In this document: one piece after another, positions 14,865-34,049 of the stretch
Numbering within the stretch: the stretch's first letter is position 1
Layout of the letters: every line of letters starts with the position of its first letter
From: Candidatus Poribacteria bacterium
Lineage (GTDB): Bacteria > Poribacteria > WGA-4E > WGA-3G
DNA length: 64,000 bases
Assembly (NCBI GenBank): GCA_965214095.1
Contig: OZ243938.1
Location: forward strand, 2,336,001-2,400,000
Reading direction: 5' to 3'
The notes under the pieces: model-generated
What the model saw: only the letters and a program-made list of their open reading frames with translations
What the model was told of the DNA's origin: nothing
The model's database searches: none
Program-made: the position numbers and the translations under genes

Positions 14865-15008
14865 GTTTTAGGGTTTTTGTTGAGTCTTTTTCACAAATGC
14901 TAAATTCCCCAAGCCGGTAGGTGCGGTTTCCTAACCGCACCGGATTTGTGCTAGACACCTTTCATAATAGGTCTTCTCACAGGTTTCGGTGCGGTTAGGA
15001 AACCGCAC

Positions 15009-16496
15009 CATAAGCGTCAATTTAGTGATTTTTTGCTGCATTTTCAAGGTGTTCTAATGTTGTGTCTCTATTAGCACGTCTCTCAATGTAGCACCCATTT
15101 TGGAAAGCGTGTTTTATTTCATCAAAAGTTTGCCGAAAAGACATTATAGACTTGCGGAAACCTATTGCAAGTGTGCGTGCGAAGGTGCTAATAAGTTCTG
15201 CTGTTTTTGTTAGACTATGTTTTAGACATCGCCAACCGACCCTTAACATGATCCAGTGCCGCATAATTGCGACGATGAGTTTTGCATATAACTCACATAA
15301 GATTCTATATGGCTTGTCGCTACGGGAGGTATCAACTTTTCCAATGCTTTTGAAGCACTTGAACATCAACTCAACCTGCCATCGGATGCGTGCGACAGCA
15401 CAAATCTGTTCAGCAGTCAGATGGTCTACTTTTATATTAGTAATGTAGATATTCCATCTTGCGAGCTGAAGTCGTTTGGGTGAAGGTTTCGTATACTTCC
15501 GCTTTGCACGATGTTTTATCTCCTTAATACGCTGTTGGGTTTCTGTTTCTGAAAGTCTTTGAACAACTAATCGTGCTTTGAGACGCTTGTTTTTACCTAT
15601 AAAGATTTGTTTGTCCTTGAAGTTATTAGAACCCTTCTTGAGCCATTTTAGCAAGCAAAAAGGGGCACCTGTTTCATCATAGAGAAAACACTGGACTTTG
15701 TAGCGTGATATCCAAAAGACGTTTGCATCGGAAAGTCTTTTGAAGGTATCAAGTGAATAATAGCCGAGGTCTGCGAGGCGCAAACTGCCGGCGGGTAGCA
15801 TGTCAATCTGCTTTTCAATAGCACTATCAGCGGTGATACCATTGGTCAGTTCAAAGTGTTCAAAAGTGCCTGTGGCACTATCAAAACGCAGGTGGAGTTT
15901 CACGGCAGCTGTGTTCGGTTTATTCTTTTTGCTTCCACCTTCCCAAGTTTCGTGGAGCACATCAGGGAGTGTAATCCAAGAACTATCTTGTAAATAGACA
16001 CCAGTGAACTTTTCAAGGAGCGGAAGCGTTTGCGGGTCGGCAGAAATAACCTTGGACGCAGTAGCATCAAGGATAACTTTCAGGGTCTCTGCTGCTTCAG
16101 ATGTAAATCGTTGTTCAATGGCTTGTCGTGAGATTGAAATCCCCAGCACACCAGCGGTTTGCGCAAGTTGTGTATAGGTGGCATCTGGGTTTTCTAACCA
16201 AGTCCAAATGAGTATTTGAGCAAAACGACTACCGTTGAGTTTACAACTTCTTTTGACAAAACCTGTATTGAGAGCTGCATCATTGGCTATAGTTGTAAGA
16301 ATATGTTGCATTTCTTTGGGAACTTGTGATAATGTATTCATTAGGAAACACCTCTTTGTAGACCATAATAAATCTATATCTACATTATATATGAGGTGTT
16401 TTCATTTTTACAGAAGTTTTATTTCATAATTTATACTTCCTCTGATTAAAAGTTGACACTTATCGGTCTTGGTGCATCCTTAAATTGACGCCTATG
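15009..16496 (-). mobile_element. IS4-family insertion sequence, copy 1 (1488 bp), inserted in a REP hairpin with a 20-bp target duplication
   Basis: TIRs CATAAGCGTCAATTTA / TAAATTGACGCCTATG; GTGCGGTTAGGAAACCGCAC at both 14989-15008 and 16497-16516. Confidence 0.93.
15022..16341 (-). CDS. IS4-family DDE transposase
   Basis: 'LQDSS', 'LADLGYY', 'RWQVELMFK'; the stop codon lies in the TIR. Confidence 0.93.
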   Translation of the reverse strand: MNTLSQVPKEMQHILTTIANDAALNTGFVKRSCKLNGSRFAQILIWTWLENPDATYTQLAQTAGVLGISISRQAIEQRFTSEAAETLKVILDATASKVISADPQTLPLLEKFTGVYLQDSSWITLPDVLHETWEGGSKKNKPNTAAVKLHLRFDSATGTFEHFELTNGITADSAIEKQIDMLPAGSLRLADLGYYSLDTFKRLSDANVFWISRYKVQCFLYDETGAPFCLLKWLKKGSNNFKDKQIFIGKNKRLKARLVVQRLSETETQQRIKEIKHRAKRKYTKPSPKRLQLARWNIYITNIKVDHLTAEQICAVARIRWQVELMFKCFKSIGKVDTSRSDKPYRILCELYAKLIVAIMRHWIMLRVGWRCLKHSLTKTAELISTFARTLAIGFRKSIMSFRQTFDEIKHAFQNGCYIERRANRDTTLEHLENAAKNH

Positions 16497-16656
16497 GTGC
16501 GGTTAGGAAACCGCACCTACCGGTGAGAGTTGAGCCATAATGTTTGATGAAACCATCGTAAAAGCCTATCTTAGACATAACCGATATCATTAAAAACTTT
16601 TATCCTGATAATTATATAATTCTATAAATCCTTGGGCAGACTACAGTAGCACAATA

Positions 16657-17289
16657 CTACTCAGATTTTCGTTCCAAACTCAATTTCTGACCATTAGTAG
16701 AGAGCCTTAACTCATCTCCTTCAAGGCTCCAGGTATACTCAGTACCCGCCTTAAACAGCGCACCGGTAGCAGTCGGAGCAAAACCTTTTTGCGTTTCTGC
16801 TGCCAAATCCATTTCAAGCTCTTCTACTGTTTTACCTACAATTTGTTGTTGCCACACCTCTTCCGGTTCAAGTGCCACAACCACATCCACTGACAAATCA
16901 TGTGTCGCAATTGATAGCATGGATTCATCCGCGGTATACGTCCCTTCCGATGATATCGTGATCTCCTGTGTCATTGAAGACTCAGATTCAGGATATTTCT
17001 CTGTCAGAACAAACTCCAACGCCCCTGTGAACGTGTCGTCGGCATTGAAAGTCCAGCTGTTCCCACCGACCATGAATTCCGTTTCGAATTCCGGTTCTGG
17101 GTCCGCAGGCGTAAACAGTTGATCAAACATCAGACCATTCACTGTTGCAACCTGCCAAGTTGAATCAACGAAATCTGGAGTAATTACCATTTGATCATCT
17201 TTATCATCATCATCTTCACCGCAACCAATCAAAGAAATAATAAGCAAAGCAGTGAAGCATATAATCGTAAACCTAAAAATAGGTTTCAT
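16657..17289 (-). CDS. Acidic lipoprotein, lipocalin-like beta-rich hypothetical
   Basis: Lipobox LIGC followed by an Asp run; 'STWQV', 'GTYTA', 'YTWSLEGDELRL'. Confidence 0.75.
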   Translation of the reverse strand: MKPIFRFTIICFTALLIISLIGCGEDDDDKDDQMVITPDFVDSTWQVATVNGLMFDQLFTPADPEPEFETEFMVGGNSWTFNADDTFTGALEFVLTEKYPESESSMTQEITISSEGTYTADESMLSIATHDLSVDVVVALEPEEVWQQQIVGKTVEELEMDLAAETQKGFAPTATGALFKAGTEYTWSLEGDELRLSTNGQKLSLERKSE

Positions 17290-17434
17290 AACAAAAACCT
17301 TCCTTTTTTACAATTGTGGTATTGTCTCATGTCAGCAAATCGTATGAAACAATATTCATTTACCTACGTGAATTATCTCTTTTCCTAAGAGTAATCGTTT
17401 TCAGGTAACGTGTATGCATCGATTTGTGTTTACA

Positions 17435-17537
17435 TATAGTGAATTATAAATATAAGTTGACACTTTCACCCTATGGTAGGCGAGGTTTCCTAACCTCGCC
17501 GATGCAGAGTGTTCAAGTAATTTCAAAATCTACTATA
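17435..17537. mobile_element. MITE-E (103 bp including flanking TA) with GTAGGCGAGGTTTCCTAACCTCGCC hairpin
   Basis: Near-identical copy at 40743-40845. Confidence 0.8.
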
Positions 17538-17701
17538 TATCAGTATTTCTGAATAGACCTATGTAATAGACCTTCGTGTTATAAAATCCTACCTACCATT
17601 GAAGGTAAATGAATAATCTAAATATATAATTATTGCATTCTTCACCTTAGTTTTTAGTATAATGTCCAGAGTTATTCAATCCTATACCCTTTCAAAAATT
17701 G

Positions 17702-17728
17702 TGCAACAATTTCTCTTAAACTCGCGTC
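17702..17728 (+). promoter_or_regulatory. Candidate ECF-type (autoregulatory) promoter
   Basis: TGCAAC-N17-CGTC about 45 bp upstream of the sigma gene; AAC/CGT is the common ECF consensus. Confidence 0.45.
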
Positions 17729-17771
17729 ATTATATACAAGTGAATTCAGAAACGTTTTACGGAGGCATCCG

Positions 17772-19505
17772 ATGAAAAATGATGATGTTAAGTTGATCCA
17801 ACGCATTCTCGCGGGTGATCAAACTGCTTTTGAGAGTTTGCTTACAAAATATCGGAAGCAGGTCCACGCGCACGCATGGCGGCGGACAGGTGATTTTCAT
17901 ATCGCTGAAGACATTACACAGGAGACTTTCCTGCAAGTTTATCAGAAACTGGAAACTCTTGAAGAACCAACTCAGTTTTCAAGATGGCTCCATGCGATTG
18001 TGAATCGTCTCTGTATTGCGTGGTATCGGAAAAACCATATACACACTGAATCATTTGAAGAAACCGACTACTCAGAGATTGAGATTGATGCATATTCTCG
18101 CTATGTTGCAGCAGAACAGGTGAAAACAACTGCTATAGTGCAAAGTGATGTTGTGCAGGAACTTCTCACTAAGTTAAAGGAAAACGACAGACAAGTTGTC
18201 ACGCTATACTACTTTAAAGAAATGACATATTCTGAGATAGGTTCCTATTTAGGTGTATCAGAAAGTACGATTAAGAGTCGGTTGCACCGTGCTCGCAAAC
18301 GTCTGCAAAAGTATGAGTTCATGATACAAGAAGCGTTAGACATAACAATGGAAGAGGGACATCACTCCCACAGAAAAATAAATGGAGGTATTGGAATGAA
18401 TTTGACATTTGAAAGAGACGACCTTTTATATTCGCTACAAGTGCTGCAGGATATTGGGAATGGAGAGGATACTTCTCCGATTCTCTCAAATATATTTATC
18501 CACGCAGCTGGTGATACTATTGAGTGTATGGCAACAGACACTGAAATCGGTATCAGAATGAAGGTAGAAGGGACAGTTAGAGAAGAAGGGAGAATTGTTG
18601 TTTCTGCCCAGAAGTTAGCAGACATTGTTAATGGGTGGCAATCGGAGAAACCGATAAACTTAATTACGACAGCAACAGATCGCATTGAAATCAGTGGTGG
18701 AAATGGCGTTCACAAAAACGTCAAGATATCCGATGAAGAGTTTCCCAACCTCCTTGCTGTTGATGATAAAGCGATTGCGATTGATGGGGATAGCCTACGT
18801 TCTGTGCTGGACAAAACTAAATATGCAGTTCCCACAGATGAGGAAAAGATCAAGCGTTTACCAAAAGGTCTATACTTTAACCTATTTAATGACAGAACAG
18901 AAGTTGTCGCGACCGACGGATTACAACTTGCCCTTGCCCACTGTGAACCGTTCAACTTATCTGATGATAGCGATGGATTTATCGTTCCACTCAAAGCTGC
19001 CAAAGAAATCGAACGCACATTTGCGAATTCACCTGAGATAAGGATTGCGCGCATTGAAAATCAGATTCTCTTTGCGGATGAACATGTTACGTTGACGACG
19101 AAATTGATAAATACTGAATACCCACAGTATCAACAAATCTTACAAAGTTCTTATGATGGGAGAGTCGTAATAAAGAAAGAGCCTTTTATGAACGTCGTCC
19201 GTGAAATTGCCATGCTTTCAAATCCGAAATACCCGTCGGTATTTTTAGAAATAGATGAACAGAAGATACGGATTTCGCCTAAACTCTCTGCACCGGATGA
19301 GGAATGTGAGACTGTCGCGGTGGATTCATGTGTTGGGAGTGTCAATATCCGTCTGAATTCTCGGATGCTGACAGAGGCATTAGAGCACATTGAAACGGAG
19401 GCTTTTGCTCTAGAGTTCACAAATGCAGTGCTTCCTGTTGTAGTTAAACCTATGGGAAAGGAAGGACATGTTTGTATTTTTGCTCCAATGCGTTTGGATG
19501 CTTGA
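17772..19505 (+). CDS. dnaN: Fusion of an ECF sigma-70 factor (aa 1-~190) and a DNA polymerase III beta sliding clamp paralogue (aa 209-577)
   Basis: Sigma2 'AEDITQETFL...FSRWL'; sigma4 'MTYSEIGSYLGVSESTIKSRLHRAR'. Clamp motifs 'PILSNI', 'ATDTEI', 'EEFP', 'VATDG', 'EYPQY', 'APMRL'. Not in a dnaA context, so a paralogue. Confidence 0.88.
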   Translation: MKNDDVKLIQRILAGDQTAFESLLTKYRKQVHAHAWRRTGDFHIAEDITQETFLQVYQKLETLEEPTQFSRWLHAIVNRLCIAWYRKNHIHTESFEETDYSEIEIDAYSRYVAAEQVKTTAIVQSDVVQELLTKLKENDRQVVTLYYFKEMTYSEIGSYLGVSESTIKSRLHRARKRLQKYEFMIQEALDITMEEGHHSHRKINGGIGMNLTFERDDLLYSLQVLQDIGNGEDTSPILSNIFIHAAGDTIECMATDTEIGIRMKVEGTVREEGRIVVSAQKLADIVNGWQSEKPINLITTATDRIEISGGNGVHKNVKISDEEFPNLLAVDDKAIAIDGDSLRSVLDKTKYAVPTDEEKIKRLPKGLYFNLFNDRTEVVATDGLQLALAHCEPFNLSDDSDGFIVPLKAAKEIERTFANSPEIRIARIENQILFADEHVTLTTKLINTEYPQYQQILQSSYDGRVVIKKEPFMNVVREIAMLSNPKYPSVFLEIDEQKIRISPKLSAPDEECETVAVDSCVGSVNIRLNSRMLTEALEHIETEAFALEFTNAVLPVVVKPMGKEGHVCIFAPMRLDA

Positions 19506-19850
19506 GTAATAATCTAATCGTATATGCCCTATTTGACAGTTATAGGTTAGTGCTTAGTCAACATTTTATTGTAGTTCGCGATTCGGAGATCGTTCCTACC
19601 GACTGACCATTTATTGTCCGAGGGAACTCCGATTCCCGATTACTCTTATGTCCATCAGTTATAGTAAAAACCATAATTATTTACACACTACGGTAGGTTC
19701 GGTTTCCTAACCGAACCATGGGCGTCAATTTAGTGTAAATTAGGCGTTTTCCCCAGGACGGTAGGTTCGGTTTCCTAACCGAACTGGATCCTATGCGAGA
19801 ACCTCTATGAAGGTATTTGGCACAAAGCCGGTTCGGTTAGGAAACCGAAC

Positions 19851-21338
19851 CATAGGCGTCAATTTAGTGATTTTTTGCTGCATTTTCAAGGTGTTCTAAT
19901 GTTGTGTCTCTATTAGCACGTCTCTCAATGTAGCACCCATTTTGGAAAGCGTGTTTTATTTCATCAAAAGTTTGCCGAAAAGACATTATAGACTTGCGGA
20001 AACCTATTGCAAGTGTGCGTGCGAAGGTGCTAATAAGTTCTGCTGTTTTTGTTAGACTATGTTTTAGACATCGCCAACCGACCCTTAACATGATCCAGTG
20101 CCGCATAATTGCGACGATGAGTTTTGCATATAACTCACATAAGATTCTATATGGCTTGTCGCTACGGGAGGTATCAACTTTTCCAATGCTTTTGAAGCAC
20201 TTGAACATCAACTCAACCTGCCATCGGATGCGTGCGACAGCACAAATCTGTTCAGCAGTCAGATGGTCTACTTTTATATTAGTAATGTAGATATTCCATC
20301 TTGCGAGCTGAAGTCGTTTGGGTGAAGGTTTCGTATACTTCCGCTTTGCACGATGTTTTATCTCCTTAATACGCTGTTGGGTTTCTGTTTCTGAAAGTCT
20401 TTGAACAACTAATCGTGCTTTGAGACGCTTGTTTTTACCTATAAAGATTTGTTTGTCCTTGAAGTTATTAGAACCCTTCTTGAGCCATTTTAGCAAACAA
20501 AAAGGGTCACCTGTTTCATCATAGAGAAAACACTGGACTTTGTAGCGTGATATCCAAAAGACGTTTGCATCGGAAAGTCTTTTGAAGGTATCAAGTGAAT
20601 AATAGCCGAGGTCTGCGAGGCGCAAACTGCCGGCGGGTAGCATGTCAATCTGCTTTTCAATAGCACTATCAGCGGTGATACCATTGGTCAGTTCAAAGTG
20701 TTCAAAAGTGCCTGTGGCACTATCAAAACGCAGGTGGAGTTTCACGGCAGCTGTGTTCGGTTTATTCTTTTTGCTTCCACCTTCCCAAGTTTCGTGGAGC
20801 ACATCAGGGAGTGTAATCCAAGAACTATCTTGTAAATAGACACCAGTGAACTTTTCAAGGAGCGGAAGCGTTTGCGGGTCGGCAGAAATAACCTTGGACG
20901 CAGTAGCATCAAGGATAACTTTCAGGGTCTCTGCTGCTTCAGATGTAAATCGTTGTTCAATGGCTTGTCGTGAGATTGAAATCCCCAGCACACCAGCGGT
21001 TTGCGCAAGTTGTGTATAGGTGGCATCTGGGTTTTCTAACCAAGTCCAAATGAGTATTTGAGCAAAACGACTACCGTTGAGTTTACAACTTCTTTTGACA
21101 AAACCTGTATTGAGAGCTGCATCATTGGCTATAGTTGTAAGAATATGTTGCATTTCTTTGGGAACTTGTGATAATGTATTCATTAGGAAACACCTCTTTG
21201 TAGACCATAATAAATCTATATCTACATTATATATGAGGTGTTTTCATTTTTACAGAAGTTTTATTTCATAATTTATACTTCCTCTGATTAAAAGTTGACA
21301 CTTATCGGTCTTGGTGCATCCTTAAATTGACGCCTATG
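19851..21338 (-). mobile_element. IS4-family insertion sequence, copy 2 (1488 bp), 20-bp TSD
   Basis: TIRs CATAGGCGTCAATTTA / TAAATTGACGCCTATG; GTTCGGTTAGGAAACCGAAC at 19831-19850 and 21339-21358. Confidence 0.93.
19864..21183 (-). CDS. IS4-family DDE transposase (one residue differs from copy 1)
   Basis: ETGDPF vs ETGAPF; otherwise the same translation. Confidence 0.93.
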   Translation of the reverse strand: MNTLSQVPKEMQHILTTIANDAALNTGFVKRSCKLNGSRFAQILIWTWLENPDATYTQLAQTAGVLGISISRQAIEQRFTSEAAETLKVILDATASKVISADPQTLPLLEKFTGVYLQDSSWITLPDVLHETWEGGSKKNKPNTAAVKLHLRFDSATGTFEHFELTNGITADSAIEKQIDMLPAGSLRLADLGYYSLDTFKRLSDANVFWISRYKVQCFLYDETGDPFCLLKWLKKGSNNFKDKQIFIGKNKRLKARLVVQRLSETETQQRIKEIKHRAKRKYTKPSPKRLQLARWNIYITNIKVDHLTAEQICAVARIRWQVELMFKCFKSIGKVDTSRSDKPYRILCELYAKLIVAIMRHWIMLRVGWRCLKHSLTKTAELISTFARTLAIGFRKSIMSFRQTFDEIKHAFQNGCYIERRANRDTTLEHLENAAKNH

Positions 21339-21530
21339 GTTCGGTTAGGAAACCGAACCTACCGGTACTTGGAAGGACGCTAAATTGACGCCTATGGTTC
21401 GATTTCCTAACCGAACCGGTGTTTGTTCAGTCTCATAGATGCGGTTAGGAAACCGCATCTACCGAGGAGTACACGTGTTTTTACATTTCACCATAACGCT
21501 TGACTAAGCACTATCGCGTAAGTCTTGTTC

Positions 21531-23519
21531 CTACCAAGTATATGCTATTTTTGTGAACAGTTGGTTCACAGTCTCATCTGCATCTTGGTCTCCGTAGACG
21601 AGATATAGCACGATGTCTTCCAAGAACATATACTTAAAGACAGCATTTAGGTTCGGTTTATGATCTCCTCCTGAACGCAATCGGAATGTAATCCACTTTT
21701 CTCTGCCAATCTCAAAGTTTGCACTTGATCGCAGTGAAAACTTATAGGTATTTTCTCCATCAGGAAAAGTCTGCCACAGATTCTCTCCTTCAATTCCTAT
21801 GGATAGAAATTTGAAAGGAATTAGATTCATCGCGGTTGTTACAAACGTTGCTGTAGCACCTTCAAATTCACCATATTGACAGACGACAAAGATGCGATCT
21901 GGATTTTGTCGGTTGTATACTGCCTGCGCTGCAACAACCCAGTTATTGTAAACATCATACGACCAATTTCTAACAAAAAACCCGGTCTGATATTTTTCAC
22001 CTAAATCGAATTCCATCAGTTGAAAATGGTCTCCACGTATCCTTTCACCTTCATGATTCCAAGTGAGATTTTGGACAGATTCAAATTTGATCGTCTGCAA
22101 TACACCTTTATTTAAGTGCCAACGATATACACCCCAAAAACTTGGTTGTCTTATGTCCGTGAGCCGGACTAATCCGTTGATAGGTTTGAATCCATCCGAT
22201 ATATCTCTATATGCAAGACTGAAAATCGGATTCCCTCTACGATTGATTTCAGCTAAGATTGCACGCCGATCCGTTGCGTCTGGTTCCCAGTTTCCTGCAT
22301 AATTTGCTATAAAATTGAAATCTTTTGGCAGACGAATTCTCGTATCAACCGATGCTGAACGGTTATATGACTCGCTTACTTCTTTTGATGCAAAAAACAA
22401 TCCAACTGATGAGGAATTCCCCGCATCCCATAACCCGCGTGCCAAGATGTTATGACTGTCATCTTCGGTCTCTTGAACATGCATAAGTCCGTAAGTTGCT
22501 CTCCCTGTCTTTCCGATGAGTTTAGCACCGTAGTCTATCTCACCAATACGACGACTGTAAAATAGAGATATGGGTGCTCTAAAAATTCGTCCATCCTCTT
22601 GGAAGAAAGGTCTACGGTCTGTCAATCGCTGCTCAAGATCGGATAAAACGATACCTTGAACTTCAGATTCAATATGACTGAAATCTGGATTTAATGTGCC
22701 AATGATAGACGTGCTTGTGGTTATTCGGTAAGTACCATCTACACCTATTGCTGGCGTTAATTTGTCTGCTAAGGCTTCAGAATTTGATGTGTTATCATAT
22801 CTTGCTGATAAATATCCACCAAGTTCAATCTGCTTTCCAATATTCTTTAGATCAAGTTCAATGTTCGTCAGGGTGCCGAATCGATTTGCATCAGAGACGT
22901 TGACACCCGTATCAGCCCAAGTGCTTGTGCGATCCAAACTTTGATGTCGACGCACGATATTTAGTCCCCATGTCTGCTTTGCTACGCGTGGTAGATCAAG
23001 GATTTGATATGGAATTTTCATCTCTACTATCCAAGCAGTATCTGTTATCGATGCTGCAGCTGTCCATTCTCCATCCCATCCGAGGTCACCTTGTTTTTCA
23101 TCCAGTTGCGTGCCAAGCGGGTTAACAGCAAATCCGTAAGTCCGTTGTTTATCATGGTATGTGTCAAGATAGATTGCGACATGATCTTCAAATTTGAAAC
23201 TTCCATCTCTTCGTGTCTGATTAGCAATCATTGTTGACTTGTCTTGAAAACAGCGAAAACCGACATAAAGTGCTACATCATCATGGACAATGTAGACTTG
23301 AGTTTGATCTGGCACTGTCGTTTTCAATTCTGCAACCAAGAATCTTTCAATTGGTGTTGCTTGTTGCCATGCACTTTCTTCCAATTTCCCATCTATTAGT
23401 AGTTTTGCTTCAACTTTTTGCCATGCTATCGTTTGAGAATATGCATTTTTATGCATAAGAAAAAAACAACAGATAGTACAGTAAAATAGTAATATCCATT
23501 TGTCAGCTAAATTTATCAT
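21531..23519 (-). CDS. CBM9-like / DUF5916 outer-membrane protein
   Basis: 'IDGKLEESAW', 'YLDTYHD...FAVNPLGTQLD', 'LNPDFSHIE', 'RRPFFQE', 'LFYSRRIG'; C-terminal aromatic 'KIAYTW'. Confidence 0.8.
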   Translation of the reverse strand: MINLADKWILLFYCTICCFFLMHKNAYSQTIAWQKVEAKLLIDGKLEESAWQQATPIERFLVAELKTTVPDQTQVYIVHDDVALYVGFRCFQDKSTMIANQTRRDGSFKFEDHVAIYLDTYHDKQRTYGFAVNPLGTQLDEKQGDLGWDGEWTAAASITDTAWIVEMKIPYQILDLPRVAKQTWGLNIVRRHQSLDRTSTWADTGVNVSDANRFGTLTNIELDLKNIGKQIELGGYLSARYDNTSNSEALADKLTPAIGVDGTYRITTSTSIIGTLNPDFSHIESEVQGIVLSDLEQRLTDRRPFFQEDGRIFRAPISLFYSRRIGEIDYGAKLIGKTGRATYGLMHVQETEDDSHNILARGLWDAGNSSSVGLFFASKEVSESYNRSASVDTRIRLPKDFNFIANYAGNWEPDATDRRAILAEINRRGNPIFSLAYRDISDGFKPINGLVRLTDIRQPSFWGVYRWHLNKGVLQTIKFESVQNLTWNHEGERIRGDHFQLMEFDLGEKYQTGFFVRNWSYDVYNNWVVAAQAVYNRQNPDRIFVVCQYGEFEGATATFVTTAMNLIPFKFLSIGIEGENLWQTFPDGENTYKFSLRSSANFEIGREKWITFRLRSGGDHKPNLNAVFKYMFLEDIVLYLVYGDQDADETVNQLFTKIAYTW

Positions 23520-25574: not shown

Positions 25575-25683
25575 TTTCATTTCCTCCAAAGGATATTGTG
25601 TGTCACTGACTAAACCTAAATTTGAATTAGTATGTCATTAATTTGCACGTTTTACAACAAAAAATGTTCATGCTTAAATAAAT

Positions 25684-25873: not shown

Positions 25874-25921
25874 AGATAAATTGTGATATACTATCTACTA
25901 AATTATATAAAGGTACAGAAT

Positions 25922-27121
25922 ATGGGAAGATCATTTGAAAAATCGTTGGCATGGCGAGAACGTGCAAAAACTGCATTAGTCGGCGGTGGACAACCCCACA
26001 AACAGAGCAACCCACCGCAACCTATTATGGTCGCAGGTGGCAAAGGTGCGCATTTTTGGGATGCTGATGGAAACGACTATATTGATTATCTAATGGGATA
26101 CGGACCGATGATTCTCGGACACGCCTATCCTACCGTGATTGAAGCTGTCGCAAAGGCATTGGAACGTGGCAACGTCTATAACTTCGGACACACATTGGAA
26201 ATTGAACTCGCAGAAAAACTTGTTGAGATTATTCCATCGGCAGATAAGGTCGCATACTTTGTCGGTGGTTCCGATGCAACCACTGGCGCACTTAAGTTTG
26301 CTCGTGCCTATACCGAAAGAGAAAAGGTGATCCGATGTGGTTACCACGGTTGGCACGATTGGTGTCACAACACGCGGGGACACTTACCGAGTAGTGCTGC
26401 AGCAACGCTCAGCGTTCCTTTCAACGACATTGACGCACTTGAAGACCTATTTAAGGAACATCCCGGAGAAATTGCCTGCTTGATTATGGAACCATCAGGA
26501 CACGACCTGCCAGCCGAAGGGTATTTGGAAAACGTCAAATCCGTTGTGAATACTAACGATGCGCTATTAATATTTGATGAAGTTAAAACTGGATTTCGAT
26601 ACGCTTTAGGTGGTGCACAGGAGTATTTCGGTGTCACACCTGATATGTCGGTTTTTGGGAAGGCATTGGCAAACGGATTTGCTACCGCTGTCGTTGTCGG
26701 AAGGAAAGATATTATGGATGAAGTTGCTGGCGTATGGGTCGCCGCTACCTTCCACGGAGAGGTGTCACTCGTTGCCGCTGCTATTGCTACAATTGCAGAA
26801 TTGGAAGCGAAAGACGGCGTAACTTTTATGTGGAAACAGGGACAAAAATTATTAGATGGCTATAGAGAAATGACAGACAGATTGGGTATTGACCAAGCGC
26901 GTATCGGTGGAATTGGACCCATGCCTTTCTTTGGGCTGAATGCTGATGGTGAAAAGCAAGGTCAATTCCGAAGAACATTCTATGAAGCAACATTAGACGG
27001 TGGATTGTATCTACCTGAAGGACATATTTGGTTTATGTCCATTTCACACACAGACGAAGACATTGATAAGACATTGAATGTTTCGGAAGATGCACTCAAA
27101 AAGGCGAAAGCAAAAACATAA
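25922..27121 (+). CDS. Class III aminotransferase (glutamate-1-semialdehyde aminomutase-like)
   Basis: 'WDADGNDYIDY', 'GYHGWHD', 'IFDEVKTGFR', 'FGKALANG'. Confidence 0.9.
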   Translation: MGRSFEKSLAWRERAKTALVGGGQPHKQSNPPQPIMVAGGKGAHFWDADGNDYIDYLMGYGPMILGHAYPTVIEAVAKALERGNVYNFGHTLEIELAEKLVEIIPSADKVAYFVGGSDATTGALKFARAYTEREKVIRCGYHGWHDWCHNTRGHLPSSAAATLSVPFNDIDALEDLFKEHPGEIACLIMEPSGHDLPAEGYLENVKSVVNTNDALLIFDEVKTGFRYALGGAQEYFGVTPDMSVFGKALANGFATAVVVGRKDIMDEVAGVWVAATFHGEVSLVAAAIATIAELEAKDGVTFMWKQGQKLLDGYREMTDRLGIDQARIGGIGPMPFFGLNADGEKQGQFRRTFYEATLDGGLYLPEGHIWFMSISHTDEDIDKTLNVSEDALKKAKAKT

Positions 27122-27143
27122 TTCATTAGAATAGGAAACTATT

Positions 27144-28016
27144 ATGGAACAACCAACAGATTATACAAAACCTTTTATTGTTGATAAGAATTTGGGAGCA
27201 GCACTTGACATAGACAATGCTGCGCTACCACAAACTACCTCCGATGGTTCACCTGTCGTCCCACCAACACAGGAGCAGAAATATCTGTTTGATATGCGTG
27301 GGTGGCTGTTAGTACCCGGTGTATTGATAGGTGATGAACTGGAAGAGATACAGGAGTTTTGCCACCGACTACGTCATGATCCTGAGTCTATTCCAGATTA
27401 CGAACGTACACCTCTCGGCGGTCCGATGCAAAAATTAGCCGATCATCCAAATGTCGTCGGTTTTCTAAACGAATTCCTTGCACATCCAGCCTTATCAAGT
27501 CCAGAATGTTACGGTTTCAGAATGGAATCCTGCCACATGTTCTATCGCACGGTTGGGGATGGCAACTTTGGACCACACAACGGCAACGGCATGCTCCGTT
27601 TCCCCGGAGATTCGCACCTCTATCGGTGTATTCCGGGCAGGGGATATAGCGGTTTAACTCGTATTGTTTGGGAACTTAATCCTGTCAAATATAGACAAGG
27701 CGGTACTCTGTTCGTTACAGGAAGCCATAAGGCTGTTTATACTGCACCTGAAAGTATCCGAACTCCGGATTCTCAAATTTGGGATACCTACGAGTGTCCT
27801 GCAGGTTCGTTGCTCTTTTTCACTGAGGCATTGACGCATAGCACACACAAATGGACAAATGAGGATAATAATCGGATGGCAATTTTTAGTTGCTATAATA
27901 CTGTGAATAGCAAATGGCACGATTGGAACCCACACCCAAAACTGCTGGAGGAGATGCCACCGAAACGGCAGACCCTCTTTAGACCTGTCCGCGCCGCGAA
28001 TAACCTAATACAGTAA
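27144..28016 (+). CDS. PhyH-like Fe/2OG oxygenase with atypical H-N-G motif
   Basis: 'KYLFDMRGWL', 'GSHK', 'PAGSLLFFTEALTH', 'R' at 244. Confidence 0.8.
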   Translation: MEQPTDYTKPFIVDKNLGAALDIDNAALPQTTSDGSPVVPPTQEQKYLFDMRGWLLVPGVLIGDELEEIQEFCHRLRHDPESIPDYERTPLGGPMQKLADHPNVVGFLNEFLAHPALSSPECYGFRMESCHMFYRTVGDGNFGPHNGNGMLRFPGDSHLYRCIPGRGYSGLTRIVWELNPVKYRQGGTLFVTGSHKAVYTAPESIRTPDSQIWDTYECPAGSLLFFTEALTHSTHKWTNEDNNRMAIFSCYNTVNSKWHDWNPHPKLLEEMPPKRQTLFRPVRAANNLIQ

Positions 28017-28024
28017 AGAATTGA

Positions 28025-29209
28025 ATGTTTATATATTTCAGACATAACATAATCAGCGTGTTAGTTGTTTTCACTAATTTATGCTTTTGTTTCGGTTGCG
28101 AATGGATTCCAACTGAGGTAATCACGACTGTTCCTGTTGAAAAAGCAGCAGTTGCAACCATCTCGGCAATGGATGGAAGTGATTTGATAGGCACAGCCAC
28201 ATTCACAGATATAGACGGTGGTGTTCACGTCAGGATAGAGATTCAGCATGTATCTCCCGGTTTACATGCCACACATCTCCATCTTGGCAGTTGCGACGAC
28301 ATAGGACCGCACTGGCATCCTATGGATATTCCAGCAGGAACAGTCGGTGTACCTGTCGCTGAATCGACACTTGATGCTCCACCTGTCGGTATAGGTGAAA
28401 TAGGCAACATTCCAGTAGTTGAAGATGGTACGGGTAGCTTGGAATTTACAACCCCGTTCTGGTCTGTCGGCGGCGATCCAAACACAGATATTCTCGGTAA
28501 ACTGATACTTATCCACGAGACCGGTGATACCTTCCGGACAAATCCGCACGCGCACAATGCTGCCGGAATACATACCCATAATATCGCACAAATGCCTACA
28601 GATATGGAAACGCCACAAGCAACCCATGCTTGCACACTCGCAGTGCTTGGACAGCAGATTGATTTGAATGTAGATCACCACCTCCCCGGTCAAGCTGTGA
28701 ATCCACATACCCATGATTTGTTGGAACTCTTACTAAAATGTTTCCTGAAACCTGAACAATTAACTAATCCCGCAATTCTGACTACGATCCCGTTTAAAGG
28801 TTCATCGGAGCATCAAGCATTTCTGAATATTGAACCGAAAACTTTAGCCGCCTATCACAACTTTTTTGCCTCTTTAGGTATGCCCGTAGACCCAGATTTC
28901 TTCACAAACCAATTCCAACAGACATTTCCCTCCACAACTCCTGATGCCTATAAACAGGAGATGCAACAGCGGTTAACACATCTATATATCACATCAGGTT
29001 TTGATTTTCATAATCCTGTTGATTTATTGGGGTATAACTTGCTGATAACCAGTTTTTTGGATGCGCGTACGACTGCGTGGGTGTTAGGATATTTCCAAGG
29101 GGATGATGTAGCGTTTGGTGAGTGGATCGTTGAAGTGCTAAGTGCTGTGCAGGTGAGACCGGGTGGCGGGGCACGCATCGGCTGTGGTGTGATTGAGTTG
29201 GTAGAGTGA
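28025..29209 (+). CDS. Cu/Zn-superoxide-dismutase-family lipoprotein with a ~200-aa insertion
   Basis: 'GLHATHLH', 'GPHWHP', 'GEIGNI', 'ILIHETGD', terminal 'GGGARIGCGVI'; lipobox-like FGC. Confidence 0.82.
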   Translation: MFIYFRHNIISVLVVFTNLCFCFGCEWIPTEVITTVPVEKAAVATISAMDGSDLIGTATFTDIDGGVHVRIEIQHVSPGLHATHLHLGSCDDIGPHWHPMDIPAGTVGVPVAESTLDAPPVGIGEIGNIPVVEDGTGSLEFTTPFWSVGGDPNTDILGKLILIHETGDTFRTNPHAHNAAGIHTHNIAQMPTDMETPQATHACTLAVLGQQIDLNVDHHLPGQAVNPHTHDLLELLLKCFLKPEQLTNPAILTTIPFKGSSEHQAFLNIEPKTLAAYHNFFASLGMPVDPDFFTNQFQQTFPSTTPDAYKQEMQQRLTHLYITSGFDFHNPVDLLGYNLLITSFLDARTTAWVLGYFQGDDVAFGEWIVEVLSAVQVRPGGGARIGCGVIELVE

Positions 29210-29235
29210 GATCTTGTTGTTGGAATTCAAGTATA

Positions 29236-29568
29236 TTAACGCAGAATGAACAATCCAGAATTGGCATCTCTCGTGAATTCTTCAATATCAACGAAATGTT
29301 TTCTCATCTTTTGTTCAACGGTACTCGTGGAGCAATTCCCTAACCTGAGCCAAATTACTTTTGGAGGATATCCGTGAATAATGCTCATGTTACTAAAGTC
29401 TGTGTCCTTTGAAACAATAAGATAGTCGTTATCACGAGCATAATTCCATAACTCAACATCCATGGCATCAGTTAAATCTATTGATTTGACATGTGTGGAA
29501 TTAGGAAACAGATCATCCAGCAGCGTCACTAGTTGGTCCGATAGGTTCTGATCGAATAGAAGTTTCAT
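29236..29568 (-). CDS. DUF5615 PIN-like toxin
   Basis: 'MKLLFDQNLS', 'IVSKDTDF', 'PPKVIWLRLGN'. Confidence 0.88.
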   Translation of the reverse strand: MKLLFDQNLSDQLVTLLDDLFPNSTHVKSIDLTDAMDVELWNYARDNDYLIVSKDTDFSNMSIIHGYPPKVIWLRLGNCSTSTVEQKMRKHFVDIEEFTRDANSGLFILR

Positions 29569-29794
29569 CCGTATAAACAACCACCTGCGATTTTTCCTTG
29601 TCCGCAGCATACGCAAAACAAGCCTGAATATCTGACTCGGTTAACTCTGGAAAATCATTCAGAACTTCCGCCACTGTCATACCCGATGCAAGATATTCAA
29701 AGATATCGTAAACGGTAATCCGCATTCCGCGTATACACGGCTTCCCGCTGCGCTTACCTGGTTCAATGGTAATAATATTTCTATAATCCTTCAT
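29513..29794 (-). CDS. DUF433 antitoxin
   Basis: 'PGKRSGKPCIRGMRITV...DFPELTESDIQACFAYA'; AGGAG RBS; overlaps the toxin start. Confidence 0.9.
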   Translation of the reverse strand: MKDYRNIITIEPGKRSGKPCIRGMRITVYDIFEYLASGMTVAEVLNDFPELTESDIQACFAYAADKEKSQVVVYTDETSIRSEPIGPTSDAAG

Positions 29795-30047
29795 TTGTTC
29801 TCCTAACCATCAGAATGAGAGTTTACCATAATGCCTGCCATTTAATCTCCATTCTTACGTTTTGTGTAATGTTTGTTAAATTCGTTCATTAGCACGGGAT
29901 TTCATACACTATATACCTTTACAACCATAATCCAGATTAGTTTAAGTATAACACATTCACCAAATAAATATCAACCAAACTTCAAACCCCACACCCACCA
30001 AAACCACTTGCCTTAAACTCACAAATTACGTTATCATATCAGTAATC

Positions 30048-31034
30048 ATGAACACATCAAAACACCACTCATACACCATAATCCTACTTCTTCTATTCAT
30101 AGGAACTGTACACGCGCAAGTCCTGATAGACGCTGTCATCGCAGTTGTCAATAAACAAGCAATTACTCAAAGCGAACTCATTGATGAATTTCGCATTGAG
30201 ACTATTATAGACAAACCCTTAAAGAAGAAACCGACTGAAACAGATAAACAGACATATTTAGATCGTATCATTAGCCGTAAACTTGTCCTACAAGGGGCTA
30301 AAAAGATAGGAATTACAACTACCGATCACAAGGAACAGGTAGCAGAACGTATCGCTGAGATACATGCCATATTCCCCTCTGAAAAAGCATTTCAAGACGC
30401 TATGCAGAAACAGAAATTAGAGATTGCAACTTTAGAAAAGTGGGTGCATGAACAGATTATTTATGATGCTTATTATAATCGCCAGTTTATTAGTAGGGTT
30501 GATAACAGAGAGATTGATGAATTAGCACCACAGTATTTTGAAGCAAATAAAGAAAAATATGTTGTTCCAGCTACGGTTACGTTTCGTTCTGTCTTGATAG
30601 CCTTCCCATCCGAAAGTTCTGAAGAACAGAAACAAGTTACCAAACGGATTGCAGAACAGATCAATTCACGGTTAATGCGCGGAGAAACTTATGAAAAGAT
30701 TCAGCAAAACTTCAAAACAGATCCTGCTATCAGTATTGATTCTATAACCCTAACAACAGATACTCCCTTGGGAGTAACCGTTGCGAAATTAGAACCCACA
30801 GAACGAGAAGGACCTATCCTTGTTCCAGATGGATATAGGATTGTTGAGCTTATCAAGAAAACTGCTGCCCGGCAAAAACAGTATTCGGAAGTTAAAGACG
30901 AGATCGCCACAATGATTCGACAGAATAAAGCAGAAACCGAATTTAACAGATGGTTGGCGAGACAAAAAACAAGTGTCTCTTGGTATATCATCAACGATGC
31001 ACTTAACCAAATACAGATTCAACCGACAGAATAA
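30048..31034 (+). CDS. SurA-like chaperone / peptidyl-prolyl isomerase
   Basis: Signal peptide; 'IDAVIAVVNKQAITQSEL'; 'GYRIVELI...YSEVKDEI'. Confidence 0.8.
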   Translation: MNTSKHHSYTIILLLLFIGTVHAQVLIDAVIAVVNKQAITQSELIDEFRIETIIDKPLKKKPTETDKQTYLDRIISRKLVLQGAKKIGITTTDHKEQVAERIAEIHAIFPSEKAFQDAMQKQKLEIATLEKWVHEQIIYDAYYNRQFISRVDNREIDELAPQYFEANKEKYVVPATVTFRSVLIAFPSESSEEQKQVTKRIAEQINSRLMRGETYEKIQQNFKTDPAISIDSITLTTDTPLGVTVAKLEPTEREGPILVPDGYRIVELIKKTAARQKQYSEVKDEIATMIRQNKAETEFNRWLARQKTSVSWYIINDALNQIQIQPTE

Positions 31035-31038
31035 CCCG

Positions 31039-32646
31039 ATGAAACACCTGCGGTTACGAACATTCATCTGCACACTATTTCTGATATGCACTGCATCAGT
31101 TTTTGGTGAAGTCTTGCAGTGGGATATAGCCACCTATCCTGCAGATGTTCGGGAGCAACTTGATAAGGCACAACAAGCATTCAAAAAAGAGAAATTTGCG
31201 GAAGCATTCCATTTATATCAAACAATTACTCATGACAAACCAACATTTCTAATGGCACATATCGGGGAAGGTGATGCAGCCGCGAAATTAGGACGTTATC
31301 CCAATGCGATTGAGGCATTTCAACAGGCATTGCAACTGATTTCAGAGATTCCCTATGCTGAACGTGTCTCCTTTGAACCGACAGTACAAGCTAAACTTGC
31401 CACCGTCTATCATCGTAACAAACAACTTGATGAAGCAGATACATTGTTTCAGACAGCGATCAAAGGAGCAGGAGAAAACGCACCAGTCACATGGCGTATC
31501 GCTTTGGGACAGATTGAAACCGAACGCGGCAATTTTGAAAAGGCGCGGCGTTACTACATCACGGCAGTACAACTTTTTCCAGACACAACCGCTGTCTATA
31601 ACAACCTTGGACATGTCCTACTAAAACTTAACCGTATTGATGAAGCAGATGCAGTGTTTCGTCATGCCTTGACATTGAATCAAACGTTAGCAAGTGCTGC
31701 TTTTGGTAGAGGTGAAGTCGCAGCAAAACGCAGTCAATTCCTTGCAGCAAAACGTTTTTACGAACAGGCTATCCAACAATCACCACATGAACCGATATTC
31801 TATAAATCCCTTGCAGATGTGCTTGATCAACTTAAGGATACCGAAGCGGCGAAACGTGCACGCCAACGTTACAAGCAGACATTAGCAGAAGCCTATCGTC
31901 TACAGGCACATCGGTATATTGAAAAACAGCAAGGGAAACCCGCTCTGGAACTACTAACGAAGGCACTTGAAGTAGACGCAACCTATATCCCCGCACTAAA
32001 AGATTATGCTTATGTTCAGATGCAGATGAAAAACCTTACATCAGCGAAGCAAACATATCTGCAAGTGCTTGAATTAGAACCTGTTTCAAGGCAAGCATTG
32101 CTACATCTCGGTATGATAACAGCACAACTTGGGAAGCGAGGTGAAGCAGAATCTCACTTTCTTACACTTATTCAACACGATCCAGACTTCATGGATACGT
32201 ACTCACAGCTTGCCAATCTCCGTGAAACGTCAAATAATCTCAGAGGTGCTGAAAATGCACTTACGATGGGAATTCAGCATCAACCTACATGGGCACCAGG
32301 ATATTGGTGGCGTGGACAGATTTACCAAAAACTTGGTGACGCATCCAAGGCTGAGTCAGATTTTCGCCGTGCCATCCGACTCGCCCCTGACATCCCATTT
32401 CCAAAAGATGCTTTAGCTGCACAACTCGCGAAAGAAAATAGATCGCTTGATGAAGCGCGAACACTTGCTGAAGCTGCTGTGACAAGTGATAACAGACCCA
32501 CACATATCGCAACGTTGGCACTTGTCTATTACCGTCTCAAACGGATATCTGACGCGCAACGCGAAATAAAGAAGGCTCATTCACAAGATCCAAAGAACCC
32601 TTATATTCTACAAATTCGTTCAGAAATTCTACAGATTGATAATTAG
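31039..32646 (+). CDS. Secreted tetratricopeptide-repeat protein
   Basis: Many TPR units ('VYNNLGHVLLKLNRIDEA', 'YWWRGQIYQKLGD'); signal peptide. Confidence 0.88.
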   Translation: MKHLRLRTFICTLFLICTASVFGEVLQWDIATYPADVREQLDKAQQAFKKEKFAEAFHLYQTITHDKPTFLMAHIGEGDAAAKLGRYPNAIEAFQQALQLISEIPYAERVSFEPTVQAKLATVYHRNKQLDEADTLFQTAIKGAGENAPVTWRIALGQIETERGNFEKARRYYITAVQLFPDTTAVYNNLGHVLLKLNRIDEADAVFRHALTLNQTLASAAFGRGEVAAKRSQFLAAKRFYEQAIQQSPHEPIFYKSLADVLDQLKDTEAAKRARQRYKQTLAEAYRLQAHRYIEKQQGKPALELLTKALEVDATYIPALKDYAYVQMQMKNLTSAKQTYLQVLELEPVSRQALLHLGMITAQLGKRGEAESHFLTLIQHDPDFMDTYSQLANLRETSNNLRGAENALTMGIQHQPTWAPGYWWRGQIYQKLGDASKAESDFRRAIRLAPDIPFPKDALAAQLAKENRSLDEARTLAEAAVTSDNRPTHIATLALVYYRLKRISDAQREIKKAHSQDPKNPYILQIRSEILQIDN

Positions 32647-32681
32647 TGCAAAAATACTAGTGGAGTGTCCATTCGGACATT

Positions 32682-32763
32682 GTAGGTCGGGTAGAGGCAC
32701 GAAACCCGACTTTATTGATGATAGATGGCTGCATGTCGGGTTTCGTGCCTCTACCCGACATAC
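32682..32763. repeat. Inverted GTAG-REP pair (GTAGGTCGGGTAGAGGCACGAAACCCGAC family)
   Basis: 29-nt unit and its near-perfect reverse complement separated by a ~24-nt spacer. Confidence 0.75.
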
Positions 32764-32893
32764 AAGATTAGTGTAGACAGAACAATAGATAGTGTTTACA
32801 TCTGAAAAGTTTAACATTTACATAATATTTTAGTAGTCTGTATTCATGAAGGACATTAGTTAATAATCATATACCACACCGAAAGGAAAATCA

Positions 32894-33616
32894 ATGAATT
32901 GCCTTGATTATGGACTTTCTTTCATCAACTCTGTTGGCAACGGAAACGCGCCTCGCTTTTGGGTCGAATCTCGATGTCGCATCATAGATAACACAGATGG
33001 AAGTTTTAGCGATTATTACCAATGTGGTTCGTGTAAGAGTGAACACACCTTTGCAGAGAAAAACCTCTTCACAAATCCAAACTATGACTTCCTCCCTGTT
33101 TTTGGTGAAGAACATATAGCGGTATTCAGAAGGCATGCATACTGTAACGATAACTATGTCGAGTATAGACCAGCACAAAATTATTGGGGAGGTCCCCTGT
33201 TTGATGTTCAAGAGGCATCGCAGGTCAGGGTCCTTGATAGCAACGCAGACATTTTAGAGGCGACACAAAAATGTCTACCCATCGTAACACACACAGAAAT
33301 ATGGGATACCAATACACGGCAGCGGGCAATTATTGAGTGTCCAGTTAAAACGATGAACATAGACGAAAACGCATGCCTGTACCAAGTTGATACAGGAATT
33401 GTTCTGTTTCCAGATCTGTCAAAGCGATACGATCGGCAGATAGAGACGTTCAGCCTCGCTTACGTTGCTTTCAACGCATCGCACTTCGCTGACTTCGTTA
33501 TTGAACGTCCCACTGCCATCATCAAAAATGGAGTGGAAGTTGCCCAAGTTTACCACTATTCCGAAGTTCGGAGTTTAGAAGCAAAGAATACCGTGTTCTG
33601 CATCGGTCAACTTTGA
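32894..33616 (+). CDS. Hypothetical protein with CxxCKSEH motif
   Basis: AAGGA RBS; 240-aa ORF. Confidence 0.7.
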   Translation: MNCLDYGLSFINSVGNGNAPRFWVESRCRIIDNTDGSFSDYYQCGSCKSEHTFAEKNLFTNPNYDFLPVFGEEHIAVFRRHAYCNDNYVEYRPAQNYWGGPLFDVQEASQVRVLDSNADILEATQKCLPIVTHTEIWDTNTRQRAIIECPVKTMNIDENACLYQVDTGIVLFPDLSKRYDRQIETFSLAYVAFNASHFADFVIERPTAIIKNGVEVAQVYHYSEVRSLEAKNTVFCIGQL

Positions 33617-33625
33617 CAGACACTC

Positions 33626-33774
33626 CATAAACGTCAATTTAGCATCCTTCCAAGTACCGGTAGGTTCGGTTTCCTAACCGAACCAGCTTTGTGCCAAATA
33701 CCTTCATAGAGGTTCTCGCACAGGTTCCGTGCGGTTAGGAAACCGCACCTACCGGCCTGGGGAAAACGCCTATG
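33626..33774. mobile_element. MITE-B, IS-free copy in reverse orientation (one TIR partly deleted) with a degenerate 20-bp TSD
   Basis: CATAAACGTCAATTTAG...ACGCCTATG; flanks 33606-33625 and 33775-33794 match at 17/20. Confidence 0.8.
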
Positions 33775-34049
33775 GTGAGCTTTGACATACACTCCCGCAG
33801 GATTCATTTCCCGACAATTTTGGTGATGAAATGTTAACTTAACGTAACAATTTAAACCAAATGTGCGTTGTATAAAATTAAATACTTGAAAAAAAAAGTG
33901 AATTATGTTAACATTATAATAGGTTGTGTAGTACATAAACTTGAAGAGTGACTAACATAAAACGACTTTTTACTATAAAGTCTCAATAATAGATACGTAA
34001 CTCTTCTTCAATTATTACTTTAGAATTCTATAGATAAGGAGCATTAATA

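Follow-up and report, generated by a model that had tools for sequence, protein, structure and literature searches.

The IS4 family of insertion sequences (ISs) was defined by De Palmenaer, Siguier and Mahillon in 2008 by the spacing of the DDE residues and by the signature Y-(2)-R-(3)-E-(6)-K (YREK). In their review, the target duplications of the seven subgroups all fall within 7-13 bp, and a length of 'about one helical turn' is regarded as a hallmark; groups whose YREK was incomplete were separated as families of their own, and variable duplications of 8-514 bp are given for IS1634 and IS1549 (PMC2266710). In this study, a 64,000-nucleotide stretch of contig OZ243938.1 (positions 2,336,001 to 2,400,000; assembly GCA_965214095.1) from a sponge-associated Candidatus Poribacteria bacterium, hereafter the window, was analysed together with the 5.2-Mb genome (41% GC) to which it belongs. 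[quoted passage not shown] This duplication is twice that of the described relatives; membership in the IS4 family and targeting of REPs are in themselves already known. We consider it probable that an active IS of the Tn5/IS231 type is present here, accompanied by MITEs that share its ends, which reads target half-sites and inserts with a stagger of two helical turns.

IS231 of the Bacillus cereus group resembles the element in having a DDE transposase encoded by a single open reading frame (ORF) that matches the same NCBIfam and Pfam models (28% identity), in its end signature, and in a preference for palindromic targets, the target consensus of IS231A reportedly being GGG(N)5CCC. It differs in the length of the duplication, 10-12 bp as opposed to 19-21 bp here (IS231C, scored as a control with the same script as the copies below, gave 11 bp, consistent with the 10-12 bp listed for its subgroup), and in its hosts, which are Bacillus for IS231 and Poribacteria and Chloroflexota for the element. 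Compared with that of IS231C, the transposase of the element is approximately 40 aa shorter, with a gap of approximately 20 aa after the second D, and the tyrosine of YREK is replaced. Tn5 transposase (IS50, IS4 family) shares with it the overall fold and the DDE plus R-x3-E-x6-K residues, but identity is 13-15%, without a match at the sequence level, and Tn5 duplicates 9 bp (8-9 bp in the IS50 subgroup, PMC2266710).

Insertion into REPs has been described for several ISs. All copies of ISRm22 (IS4 family, IS4Sa subgroup) from Sinorhizobium meliloti are reported to lie in REPs, with a palindromic consensus (PMC1525189, PMC2266710). The insertion point of this IS is the palindrome's axis, and its repeats are 6 bp long (PMC1525189), whereas the present element duplicates the whole 20-bp hairpin and cuts at both of its ends. 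IS1397/ISKpn1 and ISPsy8 of the IS3 family, and IS621, ISPpu9/10 and ISPa11 of the IS110 family, also insert precisely into REPs, which serve as safe landing sites, but they use other enzymes and make repeats of 0-3 bp at one fixed point of the REP, so that the REP is split and not doubled (PMC1525189). A preliminary description of the window, made by a model from the letters of the sequence, had assigned the known REP-targeting ISs to other families; this was incomplete with respect to ISRm22 (PMC1525189).

With regard to the length of the duplication, clades ISAba32, ISTde1 and IS1202 of the IS1202 family duplicate 5-6, 15-17 and 27-28 bp, respectively, in steps of approximately 11 bp that are accompanied by clade-specific indels (bioRxiv 10.1101/2022.12.17.520857). 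[quoted passage not shown] The IS1202 family is the best precedent in kind for the working of the present element, with one-turn steps of duplication length within one family, and the family of the present element would be the second after it in which the length shifts by whole turns. A literature search for duplications of approximately 20 bp in the IS4 family found none, its coverage not extending to ISfinder and supplementary tables, which may list such cases. A search for ISs and REPs in Poribacteria listed 12 records, none of them relevant, and no paper describing this lineage was found in these searches.

Length and origin of the flanking repeats

The window was scanned with the 16-nt end motif at up to 2 mismatches, with shuffled sequences as the control. 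Eight matches were observed, compared with 0.05 expected, and none of 100 shuffles attained this number. Direct reading resolved the four elements, the flanking repeats of which matched at 20/20, 20/20, 19/20 and 17/20 positions (Table 1). Three of the four duplicated 20-mers are exactly a hairpin, with an 8-bp stem and a 4-nt loop, adjoining GTAG/CTAC, and they represent two stem variants and both orientations. The fourth, at MITE 33626-33774, is ordinary non-hairpin sequence and contains the stop codon of ORF 32894-33616.

Genome-wide, 84 left-type and 79 right-type ends were found at 2 or fewer mismatches. Ends were paired only if the flanking repeat could be scored, yielding 38 elements, a selection that favours repeat-bearing elements and is not a random sample; no partner was assigned to 46 left and 41 right ends, which belong to remnants, to nested pieces or to copies lacking a repeat. 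Of the paired elements, 34 had a repeat of 20 bp, 3 had one of 19 bp and a single element had one of 21 bp. The full-length IS copies form an unbiased subset (n = 13; 1487-1488 bp), and all 13 had perfect 20-bp flanking repeats, the sequence of which differed from site to site. The 11 copies of 1488 bp differed by 0-4 bases and contained an intact frame of 439 aa, and the two copies of 1487 bp contained a frame of 447 aa. Ten of the 13 lay exactly on GTAG-tagged REP hairpins, and the other 3 at unique 20-mers within genes. The MITEs, with 37 matches of at least 150 bp to the intact 171-bp sequence and repeats of 19-21 bp, share with the IS only the terminal stretch of approximately 19 nt at one end and at least 17 nt at the other. 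They are small and non-coding, with terminal inverted repeats and a target duplication as in the IS, which are the features of a MITE.

For each of the three genic insertions, five matching loci (67-91% identical) were fetched from congeneric genomes. All 15 were uninterrupted and contained the 20-mer as a single copy, with the alignments of the left and right flanks overlapping by exactly 20 bp. When the IS plus one 20-mer was removed in silico, the three sites yielded frames without stop codons (269, 315 and 406 aa), and only this removal restored the frames. For the MITE at C1:5180447 (C1 being the contig label used for genome positions), the overlap was likewise exactly 20 bp in 3 of 3 uninterrupted paralogues of the target repeat; an overlap of 14-18 bp was obtained in four paralogue comparisons that concerned the MITEs at C1:4972884 and C1:1492263, the local alignments being clipped at mismatches near the end of the repeat. 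No orthologous empty site was found for IS copy 1 of the window, the flanks of which matched only in different congeneric genomes (75-83% identity). At the MITE of C1:5144650, a perfect 20-mer with A as its first and T as its last base stands directly against the CAT...ATG ends, and two copies in related genomes (L049 and L054) have boundaries as clean; the frequency of G...C at the ends of the repeats therefore does not explain the boundaries as an artefact. Since the 20-mers are single at 15 of 15 orthologous loci, the flanking 20-mers are target duplications, real and intrinsic.

The four window insertions with 20-bp direct repeats, three of them on stem-loops next to GTAG in two variants and both orientations, had been noted in the preliminary description, and direct reading confirmed them. 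Its further claim, that the repeats are true target duplications and not parts of the element, is borne out by the empty sites and the restored frames. Tabulation of the genomic flanks, which it had proposed, gave 19-21 bp in the 38 elements paired by their repeats and 20 bp in every full-length IS copy, with 10 of these 13 on REPs; the outcome that it named as adverse, ordinary duplications of about 10 bp or random targets at the other copies, was not what these copies showed.

Target choice and its consequences

The host genome contains about 514-561 REP hairpins. Of the 514 that were counted, which at 20 bp each occupy approximately 0.2% of the 5.2 Mb, 455 have GTAG 5' of the stem, and the stems occur as the compensatory variants GTT/AAC, GTG/CAC and ATG/CAT. 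Short, palindromic, present in many copies and bearing an unpaired GTAG on one side, these stem-loops correspond to the GTAG-tagged REP described by Di Nocera et al. 2013 (PMC3733652). With 10 of 13 full-length IS copies in register on one of these hairpins, the precise REP hits noticed in the window extend to the genome, and they are far more frequent than expected from the genome fraction that the hairpins occupy.

The duplication was still 19-20 bp long at 11 sites of this genome that are not repeats. Among the 22 half-sites that these provide, G(+1) occurred in 20 (p = 2e-12), G(-1) in 13 (p = 8e-5), T(-3) in 14 (p = 9e-4), G(-4) in 11 and G(+3) in 12. Eight unique sites from other genomes gave 16 half-sites, with G(+1) in 13, K(+2) in 16, K(+3) in 15, T(-3) in 11 and G(-1) in 10. 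The symmetric half-site consensus at unique sites, (G)T-N-G^G-K-K (the caret marks the cut), is similar to the GTAG^GT of the REP.

The hairpin variants were hit unequally. Those of the GTT...AAC type numbered 243 free and 46 abutting an element end, those of the GTG...CAC type 78 and 12, and those of the ATG...CAT type 89 and 1; the two GT types pooled (321 free, 58 abutting) differed from ATG...CAT with p = 3e-5 in Fisher's test. Folding energy was -8.2 kcal/mol for ATG...CAT versus -7.0 and -8.7 kcal/mol for the variants that are hit. Both kinds meet in 87 REP doublets across the genome, including that at 21397-21458 of the window, in which a GTT-type hairpin and a 22-bp spacer are followed by an ATG-type hairpin in opposite orientation (REPIN-like). 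Insertions recurred in the GTT half only, and among the 24 REP-target elements, at least 8 are flanked by such a doublet. In related genomes, a second palindromic repeat, REP2, is also a target, and there the duplicated stretch consists of the loop and, on either arm of a 7-bp stem, the 3 bp nearest to it (GTCG^GGT...ACC^CGAC). The element of this genome cuts a REP2-like repeat in a different register, directly after GTAG.

Judged from these sequence preferences, REP hairpins are probably favoured because they carry the sequence that the transposase reads, and not because they fold. Each half of the transposase complex would prefer the junction (G)T-N-G^G-K-K, in which the first duplicated G would be near-obligatory, and two such half-sites would be used in inverted orientation, 19-21 bp apart. 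Because the duplication is 20 bp here and 18-21 bp across the lineage, the two strand transfers would be staggered by approximately two helical turns, not one. The chemistry may be cut-and-paste as in Tn5 and IS231A, as family membership suggests. The palindromes formed by the GTAG-tagged REP hairpins (GGTAG^GTKCGG...CCGMAC^C) have precisely this length and carry the junction sequence at both ends, and would for this reason be the best sites in the genome, the whole stem-loop being copied upon insertion.

Several points weigh against this reading. The two-turn geometry is derived from the length of the repeat alone, and the half-site consensus is based on 11 + 8 sites. The counts of abutting hairpins are counts of ends and not of independent events, since kin copies may be post-insertion duplicates, and the ATG...CAT variant also has different neighbours, so that an effect of context may still contribute. 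Nine of the 10 REP-inserted IS copies have the same orientation to the GTAG tag, their transposase genes being directed away from that side of the hairpin (p = 0.02); this bias is not predicted by a purely symmetric target model, and here, too, the events may be non-independent. In the related genomes, 19 of 73 scored copies had no clean repeat. On the first type of hairpin, REP1, the duplication coincides exactly with the stem-loop. Among relatives, one and the same IS within a genome duplicated 20 bp on hairpins with a 4-nt loop (L061-L063) and 19 bp on those with a 3-nt loop (L064), and two length variants of REP2 likewise gave 20 bp (L028, L035-L037) and 19 bp (L029, L032). Such dependence on loop length is predicted if structure is read, and half-site reading needs a tolerance of +/-1 bp in spacing to accommodate it. 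A tolerance of this size was also present at non-palindromic sites (19, 20 and 21 bp), and variation of this kind is common in the IS4 family (10-13 bp; PMC2266710, Table 1).

The dependence on loop length would be accounted for by a structure-guided process, as had been proposed in the preliminary description, in which an extruded hairpin or cruciform is what the transposase recognises and its base is where the element ends are joined; the duplication would then equal the stem-loop, whatever its length. In addition to the match of the REP1 duplication to the 8-bp-stem hairpin and the tracking of loop length by a single IS, the presence of 10 of 13 IS copies on hairpins and the stability of these hairpins as single strands (-7.0 to -8.7 kcal/mol) agree with it. 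We nevertheless regard this process as unlikely. Duplications of 19-21 bp were made equally at non-palindromic sites, namely the three genic IS insertions with their 15 empty orthologues, the 11 sites here, the 8 elsewhere, and a site in Chlorohelix of the Chloroflexota, and the unique sites have a sequence consensus of their own. Furthermore, REP2 is cut inside the stem, 4 bp above the base of its 7 bp, and the equally stable ATG...CAT hairpin is spared. Inverted repeats of 20 bp also extrude cruciforms poorly in vivo.

Still less probable than structural recognition is that insertion is essentially random and that survival in harmless places such as REPs filters the copies by selection. REPs are intergenic, where insertions should be tolerated, and the 3 of 13 IS copies in genes indicate that genic insertion occurs. 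However, selection could not set the register, and 10 of 10 REP insertions duplicate the identical 20 hairpin positions although the hairpins make up so small a part of the genome; moreover, copies differing by 0-4 bases leave little time for purging, and the unique sites have a common consensus.

That the 20-mers are parts of the element, assembly errors or products of gene conversion between REPs is already contradicted and deserves practically no credence: hairpins repeated several hundred times could produce identical flanks without duplication (P = 0.13 for identity between two REP 20-mers drawn at random from the genome), but 18 of 24 REP-target flank pairs were identical at 20/20 as against a mean of 2.4 and a maximum of 9 with shuffled partners (0 of 20000 shuffles attained 18), the repeats are direct and not inverted with the loop orientation kept on both sides, the 20-mers at genic sites are unique and single in orthologues, and the pattern recurs in other genomes that were assembled independently, as well as in two finished plasmids.

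Every insertion doubles its target, and the hairpin copies are re-used. In the window, IS copy 2 is nested within a hairpin of a MITE. Five arrays of the form right end, 19-20 bp, left end were found in this genome, in which a second element had landed in a duplicated copy, and many flanks in relatives abut the end of another element. The idea that each jump doubles the hairpin and provides a new landing site, already put forward for the window, is thus supported. Two hairpins remain after each insertion, either of which can be hit again, giving nested and tandem arrays, and recombination between hairpin copies would trim these arrays to short units of one end plus one hairpin. At C1:2057183-2057414, a tandem array of 58-bp units was observed, each consisting of one REP hairpin and 38 bp of MITE end, and single units of a hairpin and a 38-bp MITE end occur elsewhere, e.g. 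at C1:373137 and 2485102. The 58-bp units are probably products of deletion and amplification by recombination between hairpin copies, internal to the MITE and flanking it. Excision footprints, sought as two hairpins of the same orientation that nearly touch, were not found, the smallest gap being 13 bp.

Transposase identity and distribution of the lineage

The transposase matched PF01609 with 80 bits (cut-off 23) and the IS4-family model NF033592 with 195.4 bits (cut-off 115). A sequence search of Protein Data Bank (PDB) chains gave no match at E ≤ 1. When its predicted structure (predicted local distance difference test score, pLDDT, 74) was searched with Foldseek, the top 5 matches were all Tn5 transposase, with E values of 1e-8 to 1e-7, a probability of 1.0 and template-modelling (TM) scores of 0.42-0.46; the tie to Tn5 came only from the predicted fold. 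In an alignment of 15 relatives, D119, D191 and E324 do not vary, and they align with the motifs of IS231C, and their spacers of 71 and 132 residues fit the D(60~110)D(100~150)E of the IS4 family. R320, E324 and K331, in the arrangement R320-x3-E324-x6-K331, are also invariant among the 15. The tyrosine of YREK is A317 here, Y in 3 of the 15 relatives and in Chlorohelix, and L in Herpetosiphon. As in the IS4 family, the transposase is encoded by a single ORF without frameshift, whereas the 20-bp duplication departs from the family's one helical turn (7-13 bp).

Alignment with the IS231C transposase gave 28% identity over 381 columns (E = 2e-42). IS231B and IS231C were the only named ISs among the plasmid matches listed, most of which were Bacillus proteins annotated 'IS4 family transposase'; of 120 homologous proteins listed, none bears an informative name. 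The signature CAT-------AA--TAA of the IS231 subgroup fits the ends, which read CATAGGCGTCAATTTAAG in relatives and CATAGGCGTCAATTTAGT here, with G for the final A of TAA. Two features differ from the subgroup, namely the duplication (20 bp versus 11 bp) and the identity (28%, versus many pairs above 50% within it). The element thus belongs to the IS4 family (Tn5-like DDE) and has IS231-like ends, IS231 being its nearest subgroup as set by the plasmid matches only. The family assignment made earlier was accordingly upheld by the NF033592 score (195 bits against 115) and the Tn5-like fold. Relationship to a cyanobacterial element akin to the Nezha MITE and ISNpu3, guessed from the hairpins and the GC content, was dropped, all of the 80 best genomic relatives being from Poribacteria; for Nezha, a 10-bp repeat is described (PMC6042816, PMC3184786).

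These 80 loci (48-90% identity) all derive from metagenome-assembled genomes of Poribacteria. Four were too short and three lacked a recognisable end core, leaving 73 to be scored. Repeats with 2 or fewer mismatches flanked 54 of them, at a length of 19 bp in 29, 20 bp in 23 and 18 bp in 2, and the targets were REP1-type hairpins in 28 cases, REP2 in 17 and other sequences in 9. Several of the 19 copies without a clean repeat were flanked by hairpins whose loops were of opposite orientation left and right, which recombination between copies would be expected to leave. Four loci (L012, L019, L065 and L077) had the same hairpin on both flanks with the loop inverted, TCCT on one side and AGGA on the other, as would be expected if a segment was inverted by recombination between two copies. 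Outside the phylum, the nearest plasmid-borne relatives were from Chloroflexota, with 34-35% transposase identity. The Chlorohelix copy had a perfect 20-bp repeat at a non-hairpin site, and the Herpetosiphon copy a repeat of 19-21 bp, depending on the placement of the ends. A Clostridium relative (26% identity) was left out, its ends and repeat not being settable with confidence. The long duplication (18-21 bp) is a clade-wide trait of this lineage.

More tentatively, and with less assurance than we attach to half-site reading, the lineage may represent an undescribed Tn5-like subgroup, present in at least Poribacteria and Chloroflexota, that captures its target over two turns and has sublineages tuned to the REPs of their hosts. 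By the published criteria, it would arguably be a separate group, having an incomplete YREK and a distinct duplication length. One sublineage would read the GTAG^GT of REP1 and another the CG^GGT inside REP2. With one hairpin gained at every insertion and two further ones carried by the MITEs, the IS/MITE system would then be a second engine of REP multiplication and array formation, independent of the REP-associated tyrosine transposase (RAYT).

The length of the duplication is usually treated as a fixed, family-defining read-out of how the target is held, which is one turn for Tn5 and the IS4 family. A lineage in which this length is doubled, and in which the ends are clean, recent copies numerous and the target consensus readable, makes it possible to address directly what sets the distance between the two active sites. 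It also suggests a concrete route by which transposons could multiply and rearrange REP hairpins, and a transposase with a symmetric 20-bp target preference could serve in more site-selective insertion tools.

Features of the window and other repeats

The elements, duplications and hairpins of the window are listed in Table 1.

Table 1. Coordinates of the IS copies, MITEs, target duplications and REP hairpins in the window.
Feature	Position	Strand	Remarks
Intact, uninterrupted REP unit: CCGGTAG, 20-nt hairpin GTGCGGTTTCCTAACCGCAC, CGG	14918..14945	+	Unoccupied target; read directly
Left target duplication of IS copy 1 (REP hairpin, AGGA loop)	14989..15008		GTGCGGTTAGGAAACCGCAC; 20/20 to 16497-16516; -8.7 kcal/mol as DNA
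IS copy 1, 1488 bp	15009..16496	-	Ends CATAAGCGTCAATTTA / TAAATTGACGCCTATG; end motif, PF01609, NF033592
Transposase gene of IS copy 1	15022-16341	-	439 aa, intact ORF
Right target duplication of IS copy 1	16497..16516		GTGCGGTTAGGAAACCGCAC; followed by CTACCGG (GTAG tag on the other strand)
Left target duplication of MITE	19697..19716		GTTCGGTTTCCTAACCGAAC, preceded by GGTAG; 19/20 to 21397-21416
MITE, approximately 171 bp, IS-type ends	19717..21396		Two inverted internal REP hairpins; interrupted by IS copy 2 in the second
Left target duplication of IS copy 2 (internal hairpin 2 of MITE)	19831..19850		GTTCGGTTAGGAAACCGAAC; 20/20 to 21339-21358
IS copy 2, 1488 bp	19851..21338	-	3 differences from IS copy 1; end motif, PF01609
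Transposase gene of IS copy 2	19864-21183	-	439 aa
Right target duplication of IS copy 2	21339..21358		GTTCGGTTAGGAAACCGAAC
Right target duplication of MITE	21397..21416		GTTCGATTTCCTAACCGAAC
ATG...CAT variant REP hairpin, unhit	21439..21458		22 bp from hit hairpin; internal control for sequence versus structure; -8.2 kcal/mol
Left 20-bp duplication at non-hairpin site	33606..33625		With stop codon of ORF 32894-33616; 17/20 to 33775-33794
MITE copy, internal deletion in one end region	33626..33774		By eye against MITE at 19717
Right copy of non-hairpin duplication	33775..33794		
Remnant, 86 bp, degenerate ends	57403..57488		One internal hairpin; no flanking repeat seen

The remnant at 57403-57488 reads as an old or rearranged MITE.

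A further feature of GTAG-tagged REPs is their association with a RAYT, a Y1 transposase that has REPs on its flanks (PMC3733652). Five matches to PF01797 (Y1) were found in the genome, four as frames of 141 aa and one of 115 aa, and 1 of the 5 had a REP1-like hairpin within 600 bp; among these five, a RAYT beside REP1 was not shown. One of the 141-aa frames (IS200/RAYT-type) lies in the window at 49609-49962 on the minus strand (C1:2385609-2385962), with no REP1-like hairpin within 600 bp, and resembles an IS200-type gene more than a RAYT belonging to the REPs. Contig C2 of the genome (32066 bp) has a GC content of 64%, compared with 41% for the chromosome, and may be foreign or mis-binned. 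Seven REP hairpins of the same orientation, without element ends, were observed at C1:3679206-3679500, arranged at a fixed spacing of 29 bp (49-bp period).

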